From IMG/VR virus record IMGVR_UViG_3300029945_000585: DNA of 32,551 nucleotides; one strand, 5' to 3'. The DNA comes from a virus. The notes below the pieces were generated by a model, which ran no database searches, was not told the origin of the DNA, and saw only the letters and a list, made by a program, of their open reading frames with translations. The translations under genes and the position numbers were made by a program. Every line of letters starts with the position of its first letter. The stretch's first letter is position 1. Below are positions 15,575 through 24,393 of this stretch, one piece after another.

Positions 15575-15781
15575 TATCTGCCGCAAATCGTTCGCGCATT
15601 TTGTCGAACGGCAGTATCCGATATCGTGAGTAGGAGCATCGAGAGTTCTGATTGACTGAGATATATGATGCGCCCATCGTGTTCTCGGCGGTGAATTTTC
15701 ACGCGCTTAAAACATTGCAATGAAATATTTTTCGCGGCAGCAATGTTCGCAGAAGCAATCTTTGTCAAAAGGAGTCTCAAC

Positions 15782-17740
15782 ATGGCCCTCAGTCCCACAG
15801 CGAGCCTGACACCCACAGCAACAATCACTCCCACGCCAACTTTGCCAAGTCCGACTGTGACCCCAAGCCCAACCGTGACTCCGAGTCCAACCATAACTCC
15901 AAGTCCGACTGTGACTCCAAGCCCAACCATAACTCCAAGCCCAACGATGACCCCAACTGGGACGATAACTCCAAGCCCAACCATAACTCCAAGCCCAACG
16001 ATGACCCCAACTGGGACGATAACTCCAAGCCCAACGATGACCCCAAGCCCAACCATGACTCCCAGTCCGACTGTCACTCCAAGCCCAACGATGACTCCAA
16101 GCCCGACGATGACCCCAACTGGGACGATGACCCCGAGTCCAACTATAACTCCAAGCCCAACGATGACCCCAACTGGGACGATGACCCCAAGCCCAACCAT
16201 GACTCCCAGTCCGACCATAACTCCAAGTCCAACCAGAAGTATGACAGGAACTGCAACGCAGTCGCCGACCGCAACTTCGACGCCCAGCCCGACCCTGCCA
16301 TCGACAACGGTCACAAGCACGCAGAGTCTGATTATAAAGAATCCAGTCAACCAATCATTACCGGTGATTGCCCTGCCGCCGACTATCACATCGACGCTAT
16401 CGGTCACGTTAAGCCCCACGATACCGATTGCGACCCTGACTGGGACAAATACGGTCACCTCGGTCGCAACGGTCTCCGGCACACTGTCGCCCACCCTGGC
16501 CGGACAAAACATCGCGGTAGCGACTGGCACTACCCTGATGACTGGCGGCAATGCGAAAGGCAGCATTGTGAGCCTCCCGCCTCCCATCCCCGGTCCTACA
16601 CCTGCTCCGGCGACCAACATCGTAGTCAATGTCTCGGATTCGCTCACTGTGGTGGCGGGATCAAACGGCAACATCACCGTCGATGAATCAAGTGATATCA
16701 ATATTGTCGAGCAGGAAAACAGCGGGGCTTTGCTGACCATCAACGTGGCGCAAAACGTCATGGTCAGTGGCAATTTCCTGCCAAGCAGTGCGGGCACCGG
16801 ACAGGCAGACCAACTGGTCATCACGGGCGGCACCAGTGCGACCTATCAGCATTGGGGCGATACCGAATTCCAGGTCAATTCGAGCGCCAGCATCGATGCC
16901 AATCTGACCGGTTGTGGCACGTTCACATTCTCTTCGAGTACGGCGTTGCAGGTTCAAGAAGGTTGCGGAAACGGCCAAGACTTCTATGTCAGTACCGGCC
17001 TCATGGTGATCGATCAAGTCAGCAGTTTTGGTGGGTATATCTCGCTCGATTCGACGACCGATGTCAGTGCCAGCACTGGCGGCGGGCAGGTAATGTTGAT
17101 GGGGGTCACTGGTATCACGAGCTATCAGTCTTATGATGGGCATCTGCAACTATACAGCGGCACGACCTTGATGGAGTCGCTCAATGTTGATGACAAAGGC
17201 GGGTTTGGCGCGATCCAGACCGCAACCGGTGTCGAGTTGCAAACTGGATCGAGTGTCACGCCGACAAATGGAACACTGATCGCGAACACGACAACCACAA
17301 CCGAAATATCAGAAGGCTTAAACATCAATCCACAGGGACTGACATTCGATTCGATGACGTTCATTCATGATTCGTCCGGAATTATGGCCTCTGACGCAAG
17401 CACGATTACCGCCTCGGCATCCGCGTCAATTGGGTTTACGTTTACGGGCGGCTCCGACGCGGATGTGTTTGGCTGCGACGGGCTTGGGAGCAACACCGTG
17501 ATCAACTTCCATGCGTCCGATATTTTTCAGATTGCCAGTGTCAATTCGTTGAGCGATACCTTCTCATGGCAACAGGTCAGTCTCGGGAGTGAAAATGGCT
17601 TGGTCCTCACCGCGACGTCTAAAGTGAACCTATCTGAAACGACGAGCTTCTTGTTTGCCGGATACGCCTCGGCGGACATCAACACGCGATTGGTGCTAGC
17701 CGATACCACCACGGGTAGTGTCGTCACCGCCAAAGCGTGA
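15782..17740 (+). CDS. TPSPT-repeat linker protein with C-terminal beta-helix-like (adhesin/tail-spike-like) domain
   Basis: AAGGAG 8 nt upstream of ATG 15782. ~22 tandem TPSPT[VIM] hexapeptides. ~450-aa C-terminal region rich in G/S/T/N/V beta-strand repeats. No classical signal peptide seen. Confidence 0.7.
   Translation: MALSPTASLTPTATITPTPTLPSPTVTPSPTVTPSPTITPSPTVTPSPTITPSPTMTPTGTITPSPTITPSPTMTPTGTITPSPTMTPSPTMTPSPTVTPSPTMTPSPTMTPTGTMTPSPTITPSPTMTPTGTMTPSPTMTPSPTITPSPTRSMTGTATQSPTATSTPSPTLPSTTVTSTQSLIIKNPVNQSLPVIALPPTITSTLSVTLSPTIPIATLTGTNTVTSVATVSGTLSPTLAGQNIAVATGTTLMTGGNAKGSIVSLPPPIPGPTPAPATNIVVNVSDSLTVVAGSNGNITVDESSDINIVEQENSGALLTINVAQNVMVSGNFLPSSAGTGQADQLVITGGTSATYQHWGDTEFQVNSSASIDANLTGCGTFTFSSSTALQVQEGCGNGQDFYVSTGLMVIDQVSSFGGYISLDSTTDVSASTGGGQVMLMGVTGITSYQSYDGHLQLYSGTTLMESLNVDDKGGFGAIQTATGVELQTGSSVTPTNGTLIANTTTTTEISEGLNINPQGLTFDSMTFIHDSSGIMASDASTITASASASIGFTFTGGSDADVFGCDGLGSNTVINFHASDIFQIASVNSLSDTFSWQQVSLGSENGLVLTATSKVNLSETTSFLFAGYASADINTRLVLADTTTGSVVTAKA
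15845..16240 (+). repeat. Tandem 18-nt coding repeat (ACTCCAAGCCCAACCRTR...) encoding TPSPT[VIM]/TPTGT[IM] units
   Basis: Direct reading of near-identical 18-nt units. The long antisense ORF 15571..16833 (GLGV repeats) is its mirror artifact. Confidence 0.8.
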
Positions 17741-18869: not shown

Positions 18870-19034
18870 AGTACATTGACAGTTTCCTGCATATAGGCGC
18901 ATGCGTCTGTTTAGGCGTTATTCAGAAACCGGCAATCGCCGACGCCTCGCTCGCAACCAGAGATATTTTTCAAAGCGACTTTGATCGACGCCGACGTATT
19001 TGACGCCCGCATTCGACAACGCAACGCGAGCCGC

Positions 19035-19188
19035 TTCAGCGTGTATCGTAGATGTGGTCGAGCAACCGAACGTAAGCCCCGGCTGGTCCCAGCCCGGTTG
19101 GCGTCGAGTCACCATTGAGACTGGAACAAGCATCGATCACAGAGCCACATTTACCGCACATAAACGGCTTATGACGTGTTTCCTTCAT
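19035..19188 (-). CDS. Small Cys-rich (zinc-ribbon-like) hypothetical protein, 50 aa
   Basis: Read from the minus strand: MKETRHKPFMCGKCGSVIDACSS... with GGTGAGG upstream. Below the ORF-track size cutoff. Confidence 0.25.
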
Positions 19189-19203
19189 ATGGCCTCACCA
19201 CAA

Positions 19204-19389
19204 CTAGGGACCGGTCTTCTTCACGCTCGTAAGCCGGAACACATCGACCTCTTGCATGTCCGAATAATCCGACCACGCTTCCTGTTCGCCATAGGCCTCG
19301 ATCTCAGCACGAGCGGCGGCGGCCGACGCCGCCGAGACCCGGATTCGCCGGGTTATCTTTCGCTCGATCGTTACCAAGAAATCAGCCAT
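19204..19389 (-). CDS. Small hypothetical protein (61 aa)
   Basis: ORF immediately downstream (8 nt) of 19397..19933 on the same strand. Confidence 0.4.
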   Translation of the reverse strand: MADFLVTIERKITRRIRVSAASAAAARAEIEAYGEQEAWSDYSDMQEVDVFRLTSVKKTGP

Positions 19390-19396
19390 AATTTAC

Positions 19397-19933
19397 TCAC
19401 CGGGGCTCGTCGCTTACGCCAACAATCGCAAATAGGGCCTCGAACTCGTCCCGGTGCAATTCCATTGGGCTCGACTCGACGATTTCCTGCGGGACACCAA
19501 GGGCAAGGGCTTCCTGTTTTACGCTCTCAAACCACTCAGGAGTCAAATCCCACCTTTTGGCACGGATTTTGTTGGCGAAATACAACCCACCCAGATGTTG
19601 ATCGGCTCCGGCCGCAAACCATCCGGCCCGCAATGACAACTCCGCATAGGCGCGATCCATTTTGCGATCCTCGGTCATTTCGCACCTGACGCCCAGGGCG
19701 CGCTTAAATGTTGCGTCAACGACTGCCTTCGATCCGGCTGATGACGGCGGCAGGAAAAGGCGAGGTCCGCCCTTGCCGTGCTTGTTCGTCGGCGCCCAGC
19801 CCTTGTCGCCAGCAGCCTTGACCTGCTTGTAGCAGTCAGGCCCGACCCACGGCAGTTGTCCGCCATCCTCGGTCATAACCACGTATGTCTTGCCGCTGAG
19901 GATTTTGCCGCAGGCGAAGCAACGTTCGGTCAT
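19397..19933 (-). CDS. Hypothetical protein with N-terminal CxxC
   Basis: 178-aa ORF MTERCFACGKILSGKTYVV... Confidence 0.5.
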   Translation of the reverse strand: MTERCFACGKILSGKTYVVMTEDGGQLPWVGPDCYKQVKAAGDKGWAPTNKHGKGGPRLFLPPSSAGSKAVVDATFKRALGVRCEMTEDRKMDRAYAELSLRAGWFAAGADQHLGGLYFANKIRAKRWDLTPEWFESVKQEALALGVPQEIVESSPMELHRDEFEALFAIVGVSDEPR

Positions 19934-19959
19934 CTGGTTAGTCCTCCGTTTAGGGTCCG

Positions 19960-20163
19960 TTACCGAGAGGGTAGCGAATGGCAGTGGACCAAATAGTCAA
20001 CGGCATCCTGCTCTGTCGGGAACCACTTTTGCTCATGGAACCCTATGGGGTGCGTCCAATACTCACCGCCCGGTGGGCGCGGCCGGTCTATGCGGCCCAC
20101 AAATCTTTCGCCGACGAAAACACCAGTGCGATAGTCGCCTTCGTTCTCGGTACGCACTGACAT
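19960..20163 (-). CDS. Small hypothetical protein (67 aa)
   Basis: Internal Met of ORF 19960..20331 (MSVRTENEGDYRTGVFVGERF...). GGAG 9 nt upstream. Confidence 0.35.
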   Translation of the reverse strand: MSVRTENEGDYRTGVFVGERFVGRIDRPRPPGGEYWTHPIGFHEQKWFPTEQDAVDYLVHCHSLPSR

Positions 20164-20409
20164 TTTGGATTTCTCCGCTTGAGTGAAGGGGCCAAAGCCC
20201 CCTTTGCAGGTTAGTAGGATACGGGGACGGCATCTGACTTTCTCCGTCCGTTTGGGTTTTGGAAGCCGGTTTCTGCACCGTCCGCCATTTCTGATTGACA
20301 ACATGCACCCACTCCTGTAAAAATGCAACAAGAGATTTATGCAGGATGAAAATCAACATAGACCGGCGGGGCGTTCCTGTCGGTGAAAAGTTCACAGGGA
20401 AGACGGACC

Positions 20410-20736
20410 ATGGCATCGCCCAATGATACCATCATTACCCTCGCGATGGGCGGCACTCTCGTCGATAGCAGCGGCAACCAATGGACCATCACCAGTGGTG
20501 GTCAGGCAGCAGAGAATGGCGTCACGGACACCGGCACCAATCAGGTTGTCGAGATGGCTTACGTAAATGGTTTGGTGTGGCAGGAGAGTGCCGCTGGTCT
20601 AGAATTCGAACATCCGACAAAACCGATCATCATAGAGCGTCGCGATCGCATCCCGGTTGGCGCTAAAGCGGCGCCGCCAATGCCGCAATGTTTGCGCATA
20701 GTGCAGACCGAGAATTTCGATATCGGTTATCTTTAA
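20410..20736 (+). CDS. Hypothetical protein (overlaps the 3' end of the cfa fragment in antisense)
   Basis: MASPNDTIITLAMGGTLVDSSGNQWTITSGG... The 3' part may be spurious. Confidence 0.25.
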   Translation: MASPNDTIITLAMGGTLVDSSGNQWTITSGGQAAENGVTDTGTNQVVEMAYVNGLVWQESAAGLEFEHPTKPIIIERRDRIPVGAKAAPPMPQCLRIVQTENFDIGYL

Positions 20737-21078
20737 ACCGGTTCGTTCCACCGCTGGGAGAACTTCGGAGAGGGCCGGGGCATAGCCGCCAGGGAAAATA
20801 TATTTGCGGAGCCAGGGATTGGTACTGCCCGGTCCCCGGCTGCGCCCGATCGCATGGATAAGCGCGATGCCATCCGGTTTCAGACAGCGGTGGATCGCAT
20901 CGAAGTACGCTTGATAATGGCCGATCCCGACATGTTCGAACATGCCGACCGAGACGACGCGATCGAAGGTCCCGGTGATCGCCCGGTAATCCAGCAACCG
21001 GAAGTGCACACACTCGGCCAAACCCGCCGCCTCGGCCCGGCCGCGCGCCTCGCTGAGTTGTTCGGCTGACAAGGTGAT
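20599..21078 (-). pseudogene. cfa: Cyclopropane-fatty-acyl-phospholipid synthase (CFA synthase family methyltransferase), C-terminal fragment
   Basis: ITLSAEQ...DYRAITGTFDRVVSVGMFEHVG..YQAYF....LKPDGIALIHAI are CMAS-family motifs. Homology begins abruptly at the ITLS codon (top at 21078). Confidence 0.7.
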
Positions 21079-21219
21079 CGACCGACCACAACATCCCGGC
21101 GCCAGGGGCATTCTGCGCACGGGATCGGCATGCAAAAATCATTCATCTTCACGCTCCCATCACAGCTATTGTTCGAACAGTGGTTTTCGGTAGGATCACG
21201 ACAGTTGGAAGGGTTACCC

Positions 21220-21510
21220 ATGTCACAGGCGGACGAAACACAAATCGCGGCTTTGCTCGAAAGTCTGACCGACGAGCGGCTGAATGCCATGACGGAAGCT
21301 GAATTGGATGCCGCTTTGGCTATCGTAGGAATTGATAGCACAAAGTTGCTCGAAGGGGCGGCAAAGCTAATTGATCAGGCACGGATCATGGGCAAGATCG
21401 ATGACGTGGAGACGCCTCGCATTTCACCCGAGCGAGCGTTGAGGTTGTTTTACGGCCGTTCATCGCCTTGTGGTGAGCATCCGGGCGATAATGCCGACCA
21501 CGATCATTAG
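21220..21510 (+). CDS. Hypothetical acidic protein
   Basis: MSQADETQIAALLESLTDERLNAMTEAELDAALAIVG... GGAAGG upstream. Confidence 0.4.
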   Translation: MSQADETQIAALLESLTDERLNAMTEAELDAALAIVGIDSTKLLEGAAKLIDQARIMGKIDDVETPRISPERALRLFYGRSSPCGEHPGDNADHDH

Positions 21511-21678
21511 CAAACTCCAAACGATGGCCGCAGGGATGCTGTGTGGTGGCGGCATCAGGTTAGCGGCAGTCGCCACCATAATGAGTTGCAGATAAAATCC
21601 CCGCGATATGACCCCTGCTATGCGTGCGGCAAGCATCACCACGTAGAATGCCAAGAGCAGCCAGCCTACTCCTCCCAT
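21460..21678 (-). CDS. Small membrane protein (2 predicted TM helices, 72 aa)
   Basis: MGGVGWLLLAFYVVMLAARIAGVISRGFYLQLIMVATAANLMPPPHSIPAAIVWSLLMIVVGIIARMLTTRR. Confidence 0.35.
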   Translation of the reverse strand: MGGVGWLLLAFYVVMLAARIAGVISRGFYLQLIMVATAANLMPPPHSIPAAIVWSLLMIVVGIIARMLTTRR

Positions 21679-21691
21679 ACCACACCTCAGG

Positions 21692-21838
21692 TCACCGGGA
21701 GAGTCCAGTATCAGAATGCCACTCGCTGCGCGAATCGTGTTCGCCCCCAAAGAACGACCAAAACGACGTGAACAGCCAGAGCATCGCCACCACAATCACG
21801 GCGGTCGAGATGCGAGGATGGCGCCGGAAAATTCCCAT
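21692..21838 (-). CDS. Small membrane protein (1 TM, 48 aa)
   Basis: MGIFRRHPRISTAVIVVAMLWLFTSFWSFFGGEHDSRSEWHSDTGLSR, 13 nt upstream of the previous small membrane gene. Below the ORF-track cutoff. Confidence 0.3.
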   Translation of the reverse strand: MGIFRRHPRISTAVIVVAMLWLFTSFWSFFGGEHDSRSEWHSDTGLSR

Positions 21839-21843
21839 TGTAT

Positions 21844-22452
21844 TCACTCCGGGTCAATGGGCCGCTGCGACGCTCCCACCTCATCGGCATCCTTTGAACC
21901 CGAGTATTCACCGGTTTGAAATCCAACCGGGAATCGGAACTTTGGATCGGCCACGGCCCAAAGGTGGTACTGGTTGGAGGCATCCATGAGGCGTGATCGA
22001 GCCGGGTATAGCTCGATAGCCTCACACTCAGGTCCCACCAATTCATCTTTACAGCGCTGCAAATCACGCCAATCGTGAATCGGCGTTTGATCGAGGCGCT
22101 TGATCGACAGATATACCATGTTGTCGCCGCTTTCCCGCAGGAGCACTTGATAGCGCGAGTTGACGAACAGCTTGCTCGCGGTCTGCTCTGCAAAATGGGC
22201 GAGCACCTGGGCTTCGGACAGATCGGTTTGTTTCATAAACGCTTTGATCTGCGCGGTGGTCAGAGGCCGATGCGTGCGTTCCTCGAACGGTGTCCAGGGC
22301 GCCTGTTCGATCAGGCCACGATCCGCCCGATCCAGAACATCCCGCGCCATTTTATAAACTGATCCATTGCGGATCGCCGCAACCGTGTCGCTGATATCGA
22401 TGAGCCGCAGCAAGGCTGCCAGTGCACCTGTTAAATCACGCCGACTACTCAT
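21844..22452 (-). CDS. Hypothetical protein
   Basis: 202-aa ORF within the insertion. Confidence 0.5.
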   Translation of the reverse strand: MSSRRDLTGALAALLRLIDISDTVAAIRNGSVYKMARDVLDRADRGLIEQAPWTPFEERTHRPLTTAQIKAFMKQTDLSEAQVLAHFAEQTASKLFVNSRYQVLLRESGDNMVYLSIKRLDQTPIHDWRDLQRCKDELVGPECEAIELYPARSRLMDASNQYHLWAVADPKFRFPVGFQTGEYSGSKDADEVGASQRPIDPE

Positions 22453-22489
22453 GGTTCCAATGTTCCCTTCAACCCAGCGCGGTGGCTGG

Positions 22490-22897
22490 TTAATCCAATC
22501 TCAACTGTGTATTCAGCGACTTCGGACGTACCTTGAACCAGATGTGTAGCTCGCGTTCAAGGAAGGTGAAATCGTCCGGTTTATCGTCTTGTAGCGCTCG
22601 CCATTCAAAATCGCTGTAATGTGTTGGATGCATCGGCACATCAAAATTGTCCCGATTGGGAAATTCGCGAGTGCCAGACCCAAGCCGATAGATCATCAAT
22701 TTGGGCGTCCAGTCTTCATCGGGAGTCTCCCGTTCCAAATACACCCGATGCAGCTTGGCTGGATGGGTGAACGCCAGTCCGACCCGCATGCCGGGCGCTA
22801 CGATCTCAAAGGTAAACCCATACCGCATGAGCAGATCAGCATAGCGCTTATGTGCGGCATCCTCGTAGTGGATGGATAGGCTTTCGTCGATTGACAT
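22490..22897 (-). CDS. Hypothetical protein
   Basis: 135-aa ORF within the insertion. Confidence 0.5.
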   Translation of the reverse strand: MSIDESLSIHYEDAAHKRYADLLMRYGFTFEIVAPGMRVGLAFTHPAKLHRVYLERETPDEDWTPKLMIYRLGSGTREFPNRDNFDVPMHPTHYSDFEWRALQDDKPDDFTFLERELHIWFKVRPKSLNTQLRLD

Positions 22898-22967
22898 GAT
22901 CAGGCCCTCATCAATTCATCAGTGACAGGAATCTTGCGCGTACCAAACTTGACCTTTTTGATATCGC

Positions 22968-23528
22968 CTAGCATGGCGGTGCAGCCGGTTGCAGAGCCAG
23001 GATACGGGCCGCTTCGGTGCGGCATTGCGCTGCCCGATCGGGGTTGCCCATCCCATCATAGATCGCGGCGGCCGTTTCGTAATAGCCTGCGGCCTTAGCA
23101 TAGCGCCCAGCTTCCTCGCTGTATCCGGCGTTTTCTTCGGCCCGCTCGGCTGCGTCCCGTTGCTGGCGGACCGCCTCAGCATCCCGCGCCTTTTGGAACA
23201 ACATCGAGGCAGACCCCGCCAGATTCTGCTTGCGCCCCATCCACTCGCCTACCATGGCACTTTCTTTGGGTGAAAGCATGCCTTCACCGATCCAGGCATC
23301 AACCAACTGGCCCTCCGCGACCGGACCAAAGCCGGGGATAAACCCGCTGCTCATCGCCTTGCGCCATTGGACATGGCCCTTGGGGTGGCCCTTGTTCTTC
23401 CCGGTTTGGAGGATCGGCAGGCTGGCGATGGCTTCCTCGCCAAACAGCTTCGTCGCCCACTCGCGTCCAAAGTCGGAAGACAGCGCGGCGTGCTTGGTAA
23501 GAAGCTGAACAGTGGGGCGACGAGCCAT
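22968..23528 (-). CDS. Hypothetical protein with C-terminal TPR-like helical repeats
   Basis: AAGGA 8 nt upstream of the ATG at 23528 (MARRPTVQ...). C-terminal AGYSEEAGRYAKAAGYYETAAAIYDGMGNPDRAAQ. Confidence 0.45.
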   Translation of the reverse strand: MARRPTVQLLTKHAALSSDFGREWATKLFGEEAIASLPILQTGKNKGHPKGHVQWRKAMSSGFIPGFGPVAEGQLVDAWIGEGMLSPKESAMVGEWMGRKQNLAGSASMLFQKARDAEAVRQQRDAAERAEENAGYSEEAGRYAKAAGYYETAAAIYDGMGNPDRAAQCRTEAARILALQPAAPPC

Positions 23529-23717
23529 AACCAACATCCTTGAAAGACAGGATGTTCATACCACGTTCGAAGCGTTTGTCAACTGAATTGGTTCGGAATC
23601 GGACAGACTGCTGTGTGCTTAATTAGTTTAGGTTGGTCGGGTAGCCAGGAAATCCGCGTACTGTCCAAGACGGCCGCCACGCCCTCGCAGGCTTCGGTTT
23701 GGCCCAGGTTCGGGCTT

Positions 23718-24338
23718 CCCCGTTACCTGGGCGCCATACTCACGGGCCAGCGTCAAGGCCATGCCGCCCCAGCCACAGCCGATATCGAGCACGTGTAAAT
23801 CAGATCGATCGAGGCGTAATTTGGCGGCGATGCGATGTTTCTTCGCGGTCTGGGCTTCGTCCAAGGTTTCGTCGCCGCGTGCGAAATAGCCGCAGGAATA
23901 TTGCCGGTCCCGATCGAGGAACAGACTGTAGAGACGCCCATTCAGATCGTAATGGTGCGCCACATTGCGTTGGGCGCGCGCGACGGGATTGTACTGCGTG
24001 AGTGTGCGCAGAAGGTTCGCCAGCCATTGGCGAACCCGAAACATCGGATGGCTGGTCGGATCACGCTCTAGATTGGTCAGCAGCACGTGCAGCACGTCGT
24101 AGATGCTGTCGCCGCGCTCGCAATCCACGGTGATGCTTCCGTCCATGTAGCCCTCGCCCAGCCCCAGGGAGGGGTTCAGCACCAAGCGGCGAATGGTTCG
24201 CTGATCATGCACTTTGAATTTGGCGCGAGGCATGCCCCCATGTTGCCCGTAGCCGGTCTGCGATCCATCGGGCCAAACGACGGTTAACCGCCCGACGACA
24301 ACGAGACGTCTGAAGAGGTGATCCAGAATCTGTTGCAT
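23718..24338 (-). pseudogene. cfa: CFA synthase N-terminal fragment (through the SAM-binding motif VLDIGCGWGGMALTLAREYGAQVTG)
   Basis: N-terminal ...WPDGS... and the VLDIGCGWGG motif I. Reading continues into non-homologous inserted sequence before a stop at 23628. Confidence 0.7.
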
Positions 24339-24393
24339 AGGAGTCTTTTACCGTGCGTCTTATAGAGATGCTAGAAGTTTCCGAGGTGTCAGC

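Follow-up and report, generated by a model that had tools for sequence, protein, structure and literature searches.

Genes can be interrupted by intervening elements such as skin in sigK, SPbeta in spsM, phi10403S in comK, and the nifD, fdxN, and hupL elements of Anabaena; these skin-type elements have their own site-specific recombinase and defined att sites, and their precise excision restores the gene. Foreign DNA can also be captured by illegitimate or homology-facilitated illegitimate recombination, as described for the transformation of Acinetobacter baylyi and Streptococcus pneumoniae, and it can be captured as filler DNA in end joining. Here, we analyzed a split cfa (cyclopropane-fatty-acyl-phospholipid synthase, CFA synthase) gene in the virus record IMGVR_UViG_3300029945_000585, a stretch of 32,551 nucleotides that is called the window throughout, in which an insert of 2,639 bp separates the two parts of the coding sequence. 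Like the skin-type elements, this insert cleanly bisects a coding gene, leaves collinear halves, and carries genes without resembling an insertion sequence (IS), and junctions with a common core of only 2 nt would fit the serine-recombinase members of that group. Unlike them, it encodes no recombinase, one of its ends is a severed gene, and its target has suffered further, irreversible damage. With illegitimate capture it shares arbitrary ends that cut genes, junction homology of 0–2 nt, and the absence of duplication, inverted repeats, and recombinase; unlike the known events, which usually delete some of the target, it is perfectly conservative and brings in 2.64 kb without a visible homologous anchor, and the mechanism has to be read from the anatomy. 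We consider it moderately probable (about 0.6) that an excerpt of DNA from a phage or other mobile genetic element (MGE) was captured in cfa by non-site-specific recombination, leaving an eroding pseudogene. That the locus is an insertion, that cfa is a pseudogene, and that the inserted DNA derives from an MGE are well supported, and the anatomy with its junctions, the truncated DUF6283 gene, and the variants in the population are directly shown; how the DNA was joined, that the enzyme is inactive, and in which order the events took place are inferred.

The split was mapped by tblastn with the nearest intact Cfa protein (P0001, 415 aa), whose residues 1–207 align to 24338..23718 and which resumes with residue 208 from 21078. 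The cfa residues 1–207 (24338..23718) and 208–366 (21078..20602) are collinear on the minus strand, and the locus is composed as follows.

23718..24338, minus strand: N-terminal half of cfa, residues 1–207, with DUF7884, the start of CMAS, and S-adenosylmethionine (SAM) motif I, ending ..AQVTG; 77% identical to P0001 by tblastn
21079..23717, minus strand: insertion of 2,639 bp, with no target loss, a duplication of at most 1 nt, no terminal repeats, and GA at both junctions
20602..21078, minus strand: middle and C-terminal fragment of cfa, residues 208–366, from ITLSAEQ to ..CRMFEF; in the window, 50 codons are missing from its end

The open reading frame (ORF) that contains the N-terminal half (24338..23628) matches Pfam DUF7884 and profile positions 5–90 of CMAS (PF02353), and the ORF that contains the C-terminal half (21135..20599) matches CMAS positions 90–253 of 273. 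Past 23718, the former adds 29 codons encoded by the insert and ends at a TAA at 23628-23630; the cfa sequence of the latter lacks an ATG start. The break lies between VTG (..AQVTG) and ITLS, directly past the SAM-binding motif VLDIGCGWGG, and alignment with the DNA of an intact cfa gene (L017), which reads ..GTGACCGGG ATCACCTTGTCA.., places it exactly between ..ACGGGG and ATCACC... Not a single base or codon of cfa was lost at the insertion site. Reconstructed across this site, the uninterrupted gene reads ..CAGGTAACGGGGATCACCTTGTC.. (longer empty-site form, GCCCAGGTAACGGGGATCACCTTGTCAGCC). The insert end at the N-terminal half is AAGCCCGAACCTGGGCC, directly preceded by cfa; the end at the C-terminal half is GGGATGTTGTGGTCGGTCG, followed by the ATCACC of cfa; and the predicted circular junction of the insert reads ..GTGGTCGGTCGAAGCCCGAACC.. 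(longer form, GATGTTGTGGTCGGTCGAAGCCCGAACCTGG). The dinucleotide GA is common to the reconstructed target (GGG-GA-TCA) and the two junctions (GGG-GA-AGC and GTC-GA-TCA), which could reflect microhomology of 1–2 nt, the core of a serine recombinase, or chance (1 in 16).

The original prediction, made from the sequence of the window alone, had described a cfa gene cleanly bisected into collinear halves on the minus strand, with the break inside VTG|ITLS past the SAM motif and a gene-carrying insert of 2.64 kb that has no recognizable transposase and is not IS-like. The tblastn alignment with P0001 and the DNA comparison with L017 agree with this description of the break, and profile and repeat searches (below) agree with that of the 2,639-bp insert. 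The comparison with relatives that it had proposed fixes the ends at 21079 and 23717 and limits the target duplication to at most 1 nt. It had also raised two doubts, namely that relatives might carry two naturally separate genes here and that the assembly might be chimeric. Relatives encode one intact Cfa of 411–418 aa, and the same split was found in none of the other cfa matches examined; short N-terminal Cfa fragments in the database, considered as possible instances of it, proved to be partial genes at contig ends or frameshifted gene calls. As for a chimera, which the metagenomic origin of the sequence would allow, we looked up the exact 202-aa protein of the insert, which is indexed in 43 blocks of an assembly collection, obtained 10 loci, and read 22 contigs. 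All 10 returned loci, from 10 different JGI and ENA samples, are arranged like the window and show a single difference over 20600-24400, one single-nucleotide polymorphism, and an eleventh locus (L105) has the same cfa junctions. Since the junctions recur base for base in about 10 independent samples, an assembly artifact is refuted, and we assign it practically no probability.

In the window, the CMAS domain is discontinuous, being distributed over two ORFs split at profile position 90 and ending at position 253 of 273; cfa is therefore a pseudogene here and not a functional member of the CMAS family. Either piece alone should lack activity, because the break cuts SAM motif I, the first strand of the Rossmann fold, off from the remaining methyltransferase domain, as judged from the class I methyltransferase fold. 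When the two parts are virtually rejoined, the product is 79–80% identical to intact P0001. Compared with L017, the rejoined gene has a ratio of nonsynonymous to synonymous divergence (dN/dS) of 0.16 (0.14 in the N-terminal half and 0.18 in the C-terminal half; dS 0.78) and no internal stops. By these values, cfa was functional through most of its history, was under purifying selection until recently, and lost its integrity only a short time ago.

The gene carries a second lesion at the far end of its C-terminal fragment, where two forms of the locus, A (the window) and B, part from each other.

20599..20601, minus strand: second breakpoint, between 20600 and 20599; the junction creates a TAG whose last base is foreign, where variant B reads TAT
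19657..20598, no strand: segment specific to variant A, which replaces the 3′ end of cfa, tRNA-Met, and the 276-aa gene of variant B

Four contigs (L001, L002, L004, and L006) match the window without a difference as far as 20600, where they part from it. In variant B, cfa reaches its natural stop, giving a C-terminal half of 209 residues (L001 and L004) and 416 aa in total, and is followed by tRNA-Met(CAT) and then by the 276-aa gene on the other strand (L001 11853-13050; L004 8067-9404). L004 meets the window again at about 19656, within a 178-aa gene, a rejoining seen only as 33 nt at the end of that contig; about 0.94 kb of variant A thus stands for about 1.3 kb of variant B. The variant A segment includes a plus-strand ORF that starts at 20383 and is itself truncated at its 3′ end by the junction with cfa. 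Because one join, inside cfa, is illegitimate and the other lies in the shared 178-aa gene, the replacement resembles homology-facilitated illegitimate capture, as far as a mechanism can be read from the anatomy. A further allele (L006, about 8200-8300) has a deletion of about 120 bp in the 3′ part of cfa, between two 11-bp direct repeats, GATCACATGGT. The flanks of the cfa variants are 99.5–100% identical, which indicates that the lesions are recent. The account of the split in the original prediction stands, and what it had missed is this second lesion at 20600/20599, together with a truncated DUF6283 gene at 21146..21079.

The inserted DNA contains the following features, in the order in which they are met from the N-terminal half of cfa.

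23583..23717, minus strand: first 135 nt of the insert, without homology to the related module of L101, whose blastn and tblastx alignment begins at insert nt 136
23553..23582 (end approximate), minus strand: promoter-like TTGACA-N17-TATGAA upstream of the 189-aa gene; TTGACA-N17-TATGAT in L101
22968..23537, minus strand: 189-aa protein (186 aa in some contigs) of a small family, with a C-terminal helical-repeat tail and a weak SNAP/TPR-like match
22490..22897, minus strand: 135-aa protein, partner of the 189-aa gene in L101 and of the DUF7694 gene in L011
21844..22452, minus strand: 202-aa DUF7694 protein of a phage/MGE accessory family (PF24746, E=1.2e-15; phrog_7839)
21692..21838, minus strand: small hydrophobic ORF 1, 48 aa from ATG or 51 aa from an upstream GTG at 21847
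21460..21678, minus strand: small hydrophobic ORF 2, 72 aa, from the ORF list and gene calls
21220..21510, plus strand: acidic ORF, 96 aa (126 aa if started at 21130), from the ORF list and gene calls
21079..21146, minus strand: 5′ end of a DUF6283 gene, MNDFCMPIPCAECPWRRDVVVGR, the first 22–23 codons, severed at the junction with the C-terminal part of cfa

The last of these features defines the nature of one insert end. The peptide MNDFCMPIPCAECPWRRDVVVGR aligns by tblastn with residues 1–25 of an intact 110-aa DUF6283 protein in L011 (84% identity, E=2e-11) and with positions 4–20 of the Pfam DUF6283 profile, where its score is under the gathering cut-off. Since DUF6283 is severed at the C-terminal part of cfa, this end of the insert is an arbitrary break within a gene and not the terminus of an element. 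The 202-aa protein is the confident family member of the cargo, scoring 57.4 bits against a DUF7694 cut-off of 27; this family has 457 homologues, with 19 invariant columns across 55 of them. A search with its AlphaFold model (mean predicted local distance difference test score, pLDDT, 93.4) returned no significant structural neighbor. The 189-aa protein has 166 library matches at E<=1e-3, mostly of 110–200 aa, and the 135-aa protein has no match in Pfam, PHROG, or PADLOC. The same three collections gave no family match for hydrophobic ORF 1, which is not found between DUF7694 and DUF6283 in L011, or for the acidic plus-strand ORF, and Pfam and PADLOC gave none for hydrophobic ORF 2. The TTGACA-N17-TATGAA sequence probably serves as a promoter, given its conservation with L101; a simple promoter consensus scan misses it because its −10 hexamer ends in A.

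The relatives of these cargo genes point to their source. A module consisting of a 138-aa protein, DUF7694, and DUF6283, with 72, 69, and 84% amino acid identity to the insert, occurs on a 152-kb contig (L011) that one of the same samples yielded; there it marks the border of an extended series of small genes without assigned function, among them a homologue of the Lar restriction-alleviation protein (Lar_restr_allev). In L101, a 184-aa protein 59% identical to the 189-aa protein and a 139-aa homologue of the 135-aa protein are paired behind the same promoter-like sequence. At the loci examined, distant DUF7694 genes always lie within one-directional arrays of small genes, with neighbors that include DUF3846, DUF5131, DUF1376, ParB_N, DUF932, an AcrVA2-like gene, DpnD-PcfM, ribonucleotide reductase, and phage lysozyme. 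Cultured alphaproteobacterial phages carry the family, too, namely Rhizobium phage RHph_I4, Agrobacterium phage Atu_ph08, and Ruegeria phage 45A6. The arrays resemble the early or leading regions of phages and plasmids (DUF3846, DUF932, Lar, ParB_N, and Acr-like genes), where the DUF7694, DUF6283, 135-aa, and 189-aa families live; unlike in these arrays, cfa holds only a 2.6-kb excerpt that is detached from any array. None of the cargo-gene homologues examined adjoins cfa. As the homologues sit in phage- or plasmid-like arrays and never beside cfa, the cargo is accessory DNA of the phage or plasmid type and cfa is not a recurrent target. The gene company of DUF7694 might point to an early or anti-defense accessory role. 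When viral contigs were scanned with the DUF7694 protein and the 189-aa protein, no close relative turned up, and a megablast comparison of 19000-26000 with plasmids and phages yielded nothing beyond short matches to cfa.

We also examined the insert for the hallmarks of known element classes. By Pfam, PHROGs, and PADLOC, its ORFs contain no transposase (DDE, HUH, or serine), no integrase or recombinase, and no nuclease domain, and profile searches of about 40 other ORFs of the window likewise detected no recombinase, which another part of the genome could possibly supply in trans. A repeat search at 21079 and 23717 found neither inverted nor direct terminal repeats, and the outermost 100 nt, folded on both strands, form no more stable structures than shuffled sequence does (z −0.7 to +1.7) and no end hairpins. 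A common att core of 3 bp or more is absent, where a tyrosine recombinase needs at least 6 bp; only the 2-nt GA is present, which chance would provide in 1 case of 16. An IS or transposon was rejected in the absence of transposase, terminal repeats, duplication exceeding 1 nt, and subterminal hairpins. The insert does resemble IS, composite, and duplication-less elements (IS200/IS605 and IS91/ISCR) in lying within a gene, and families of the last kind leave no target-site duplication; unlike IS200/IS605 and IS91/ISCR, it has no DDE, HUH, or serine transposase, terminal inverted repeats, or subterminal hairpins. A group II intron, an intein, or another self-splicing insert was also rejected, since an Rfam search of the whole window detected no family, group II introns included, and the insert is out of frame with cfa and has several ORFs on both strands. 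The converse arrangement, in which the C-terminal cfa piece would have been inserted into a mobile element, was considered as well, in which case the DNA to the left of that piece should continue the gene order of L011; it was rejected, since the 190-aa and 142-aa proteins of L011 have no match in the window by tblastn.

The insert ORFs are those listed in the original prediction, that is, an acidic one, two small hydrophobic ones, and three others, one of which has a weak SNAP/TPR-like tail. Its suggestion of a defense or toxin island fared less well. PADLOC gave only a weak, repeat-type match to PDC-S39 (E=1e-4) at the helical tail of the 189-aa protein, and Pfam and PHROGs recognized DUF7694/phrog_7839 as the only confident family, with no defense or toxin family in the insert; a novel defense-type function of the insert proteins is possible.

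In the explanation that we favor, a 2,639-bp fragment of phage- or plasmid-type DNA would have been joined between codons 207 and 208 of cfa by illegitimate recombination of the end-joining type. The captured fragment would comprise a promoter-led operon (189 aa, 135 aa, DUF7694, and the two small membrane ORFs), the antisense acidic ORF, and the severed start of DUF6283, and would have no mobility functions of its own. Inactivation of cfa would have relaxed selection and allowed further erosion in the same population: in one variant, that of the window, the 3′ end of cfa, tRNA-Met, and the neighboring gene would have been replaced by other mobile-element DNA, and in another, about 120 bp of the 3′ end would have been lost between the 11-bp direct repeats. 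Several observations weigh against this explanation. The most serious of them is the perfect conservation of the target at the insertion, some of which end joining and microhomology repair usually delete. The empty site is unseen, and the DNA scan for it missed its own positive control: empty-site and donor scans of metagenome contigs returned zero matches and carry no weight, as a control 28-nt pattern present in L002, L003, L005, L009, and L010 was missed. A serine recombinase, too, would leave the GA that the two junctions share. A putative donor, with an intact DUF6283 downstream of the exact operon, was not found, and the presumed excerpt of a larger array rests on a paralogue with 69–84% identity. 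Finally, the first 135 nt of the insert are without explanation.

It is unlikely that cfa once housed a much larger prophage or integrative element, of which internal deletion later left only the present insert. Such a remnant would account for the phage/MGE-type cargo, and it would suit surroundings that consist almost entirely of ORFs without family match (ORFans) with MGE hallmarks such as ART-PolyVal, the demonstrably frequent deletions at the locus, and the position of the L011 module of 138-aa protein, DUF7694, and DUF6283 at the very edge of such an element. However, DUF6283 abuts the C-terminal part of cfa with no cfa base missing, so that the deletion must have ended exactly at the boundary between element and target, and neither end shows an att repeat or an integrase remnant. 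Still more doubtful is a non-autonomous mini-element or satellite-like cassette that was integrated site-specifically at codons 207/208 (attB) by a recombinase supplied in trans and that could excise to restore cfa. The likeliest candidate would be a large serine recombinase, whose 2-nt core exchange leaves no visible duplication; this would agree with the absence of any gained or lost target base and with the GA at attB (GGG-GA-TCA), attL (GGG-GA-AGC), and attR (GTC-GA-TCA). The deduced attP has a weak dyad, GGTCGGTC-GAA-GCCCGAAC, in which 6 of 8 positions match as judged by eye, circularization of the insert would keep the DUF6283 start in frame for 45 more codons with a stop just before the operon promoter, and cargo modules adjoin chromosomal-looking genes at two other loci. 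Yet neither the insert nor the roughly 40 screened ORFs of the window encode a recombinase, and the shared dinucleotide arises by chance at 1 in 16. We had examined whether a circle would rebuild DUF6283, with its 3′ part at the end next to the N-terminal half of cfa; the 45-codon frame is open, but its peptide is not recognized as DUF6283 by Pfam, and we estimate that such an open frame occurs by chance in 10–20% of cases at this GC content. The unit is known from one site and one lineage only, no intact cfa allele is on record (none above 80% identity in a protein collection of 5.8 billion clusters), and the ongoing decay of cfa in the population speaks against a reversible switch. The integrated mini-element with cfa as its target, put forward in the original prediction, is therefore not upheld, given the severed DUF6283 at one end, the lack of a recombinase and an att repeat, and cargo homologues that never lie beside cfa.

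A long shot is the related idea that the unit of 189-aa protein, 135-aa protein, DUF7694, and (DUF6283) represents promoter-bearing cassettes moved as units to arbitrary or semi-specific sites by machinery acting in trans, such as a serine recombinase that uses GA as its core; if true, the cfa insertion would represent a hitherto undescribed kind of element, a reversible "hitchhiker" that lacks a recombinase. Very improbable, finally, is a natural split gene or a programmed developmental interruption that leaves cfa functional. The halves are open and collinear and their dN/dS is low, but all relatives have a single protein of 411–418 aa, the break falls within the Rossmann fold right after motif I, the C-terminal half lacks an ATG and in the window its last 50 residues, other alleles carry further lesions, and there is no excision machinery.

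Thus, under the explanation by capture of mobile DNA, the split cfa gene of this uncultured bog bacterium is a case of ordinary genome decay and neither a new mobile element nor a defense system; gene disruption and decay through captured mobile DNA is a type of event already known, and a new mechanism would be at hand only if excision or recurrence of the cassette were shown. The locus provides a natural example of the destruction and subsequent erosion of a housekeeping-type gene on the margin of a mobile island that bears CRISPR arrays, with three independent cfa lesions in one almost clonal population. It also illustrates that a gene-carrying insert may bisect a gene "cleanly" without being a dedicated mobile element, because one end of the insert is a severed gene. 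The assignment of DUF7694, DUF6283, and two unnamed small families to the accessory arrays of phages and MGEs may help annotation.

The best Cfa matches among GTDB species genomes, 66–68% identical, come from Acetobacteraceae such as Acidiphilium, Acidocella, and Acidisphaera. The surroundings of cfa are not shared with relatives: tRNA-Met follows cfa at none of 20 related loci, the flanks in L017 are unrelated, and the neighborhood with a helix-turn-helix (HTH) regulator is likewise not conserved. The window contains no housekeeping genes, so that cfa is the odd gene out, and many of its ORFs lack a Pfam or PHROG match. The region is a variable island rich in mobile elements or a large mobile replicon. 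A prophage in the left part of the window was considered and rejected, with zero PHROGs matches for about 20 ORFs and no tRNA-Met remnant.

Two CRISPR arrays are present in this region. A type I-C set (window 26285-32551; L105 10909-15119) consists of cas3 (minus strand), cas5d, csd1/cas8c, and cas7, and is followed at once by an array with the 37-nt repeat GTTTCATCCGTCCTTCGGGACGGGTGTGGATTGCAAC, without cas4, cas1, or cas2; beyond this array are only genes that have no Pfam match. Its spacers differ among the window, L001, and L002, which indicates that the array is turning over in the population. In the second array (window 8325-9215), the 35-nt repeat GTTTTCGTAGCCACCCAACGATAGGGTGACTGCAC occurs 14 times, most spacers are 27–31 nt long, and a degenerate copy lies at 6870-6904; no recognized cas gene adjoins it, and the ORFs listed over it are spurious. 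No spacer of either array matches the insert or any locus compared.

Several otherwise unrelated proteins start with a shared N-terminal motif, (D/E)(I/L)R(K/R)W(M/I)RL(V/F)E, which could be a delivery or packaging signal of a mobile element. Its carriers are found at 5080, 13933, 14348/14504, and 25910 of the window, at 12972 of L001 (the 276-aa gene), and in the 161-aa and 222-aa genes of L011; one of them is an ART-PolyVal ADP-ribosyltransferase. The window also encodes an 840-aa protein (1320-3842) with a major-vault-protein shoulder and repeat domains, which is unusual in bacteria and has no exact copy in the assembly index. A tandem repeat of 54 nt (18-nt units) in about 7 copies, with very strong GC and AT skew, lies at 15845-16233 within a 665-aa ORF (15743-17740) that has no family match. 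A 92-aa ORF (25495-25773), located between the HTH regulator and cas3, contains a 39-nt tandem repeat that encodes ..HEDPQKQKAQSL.. units.

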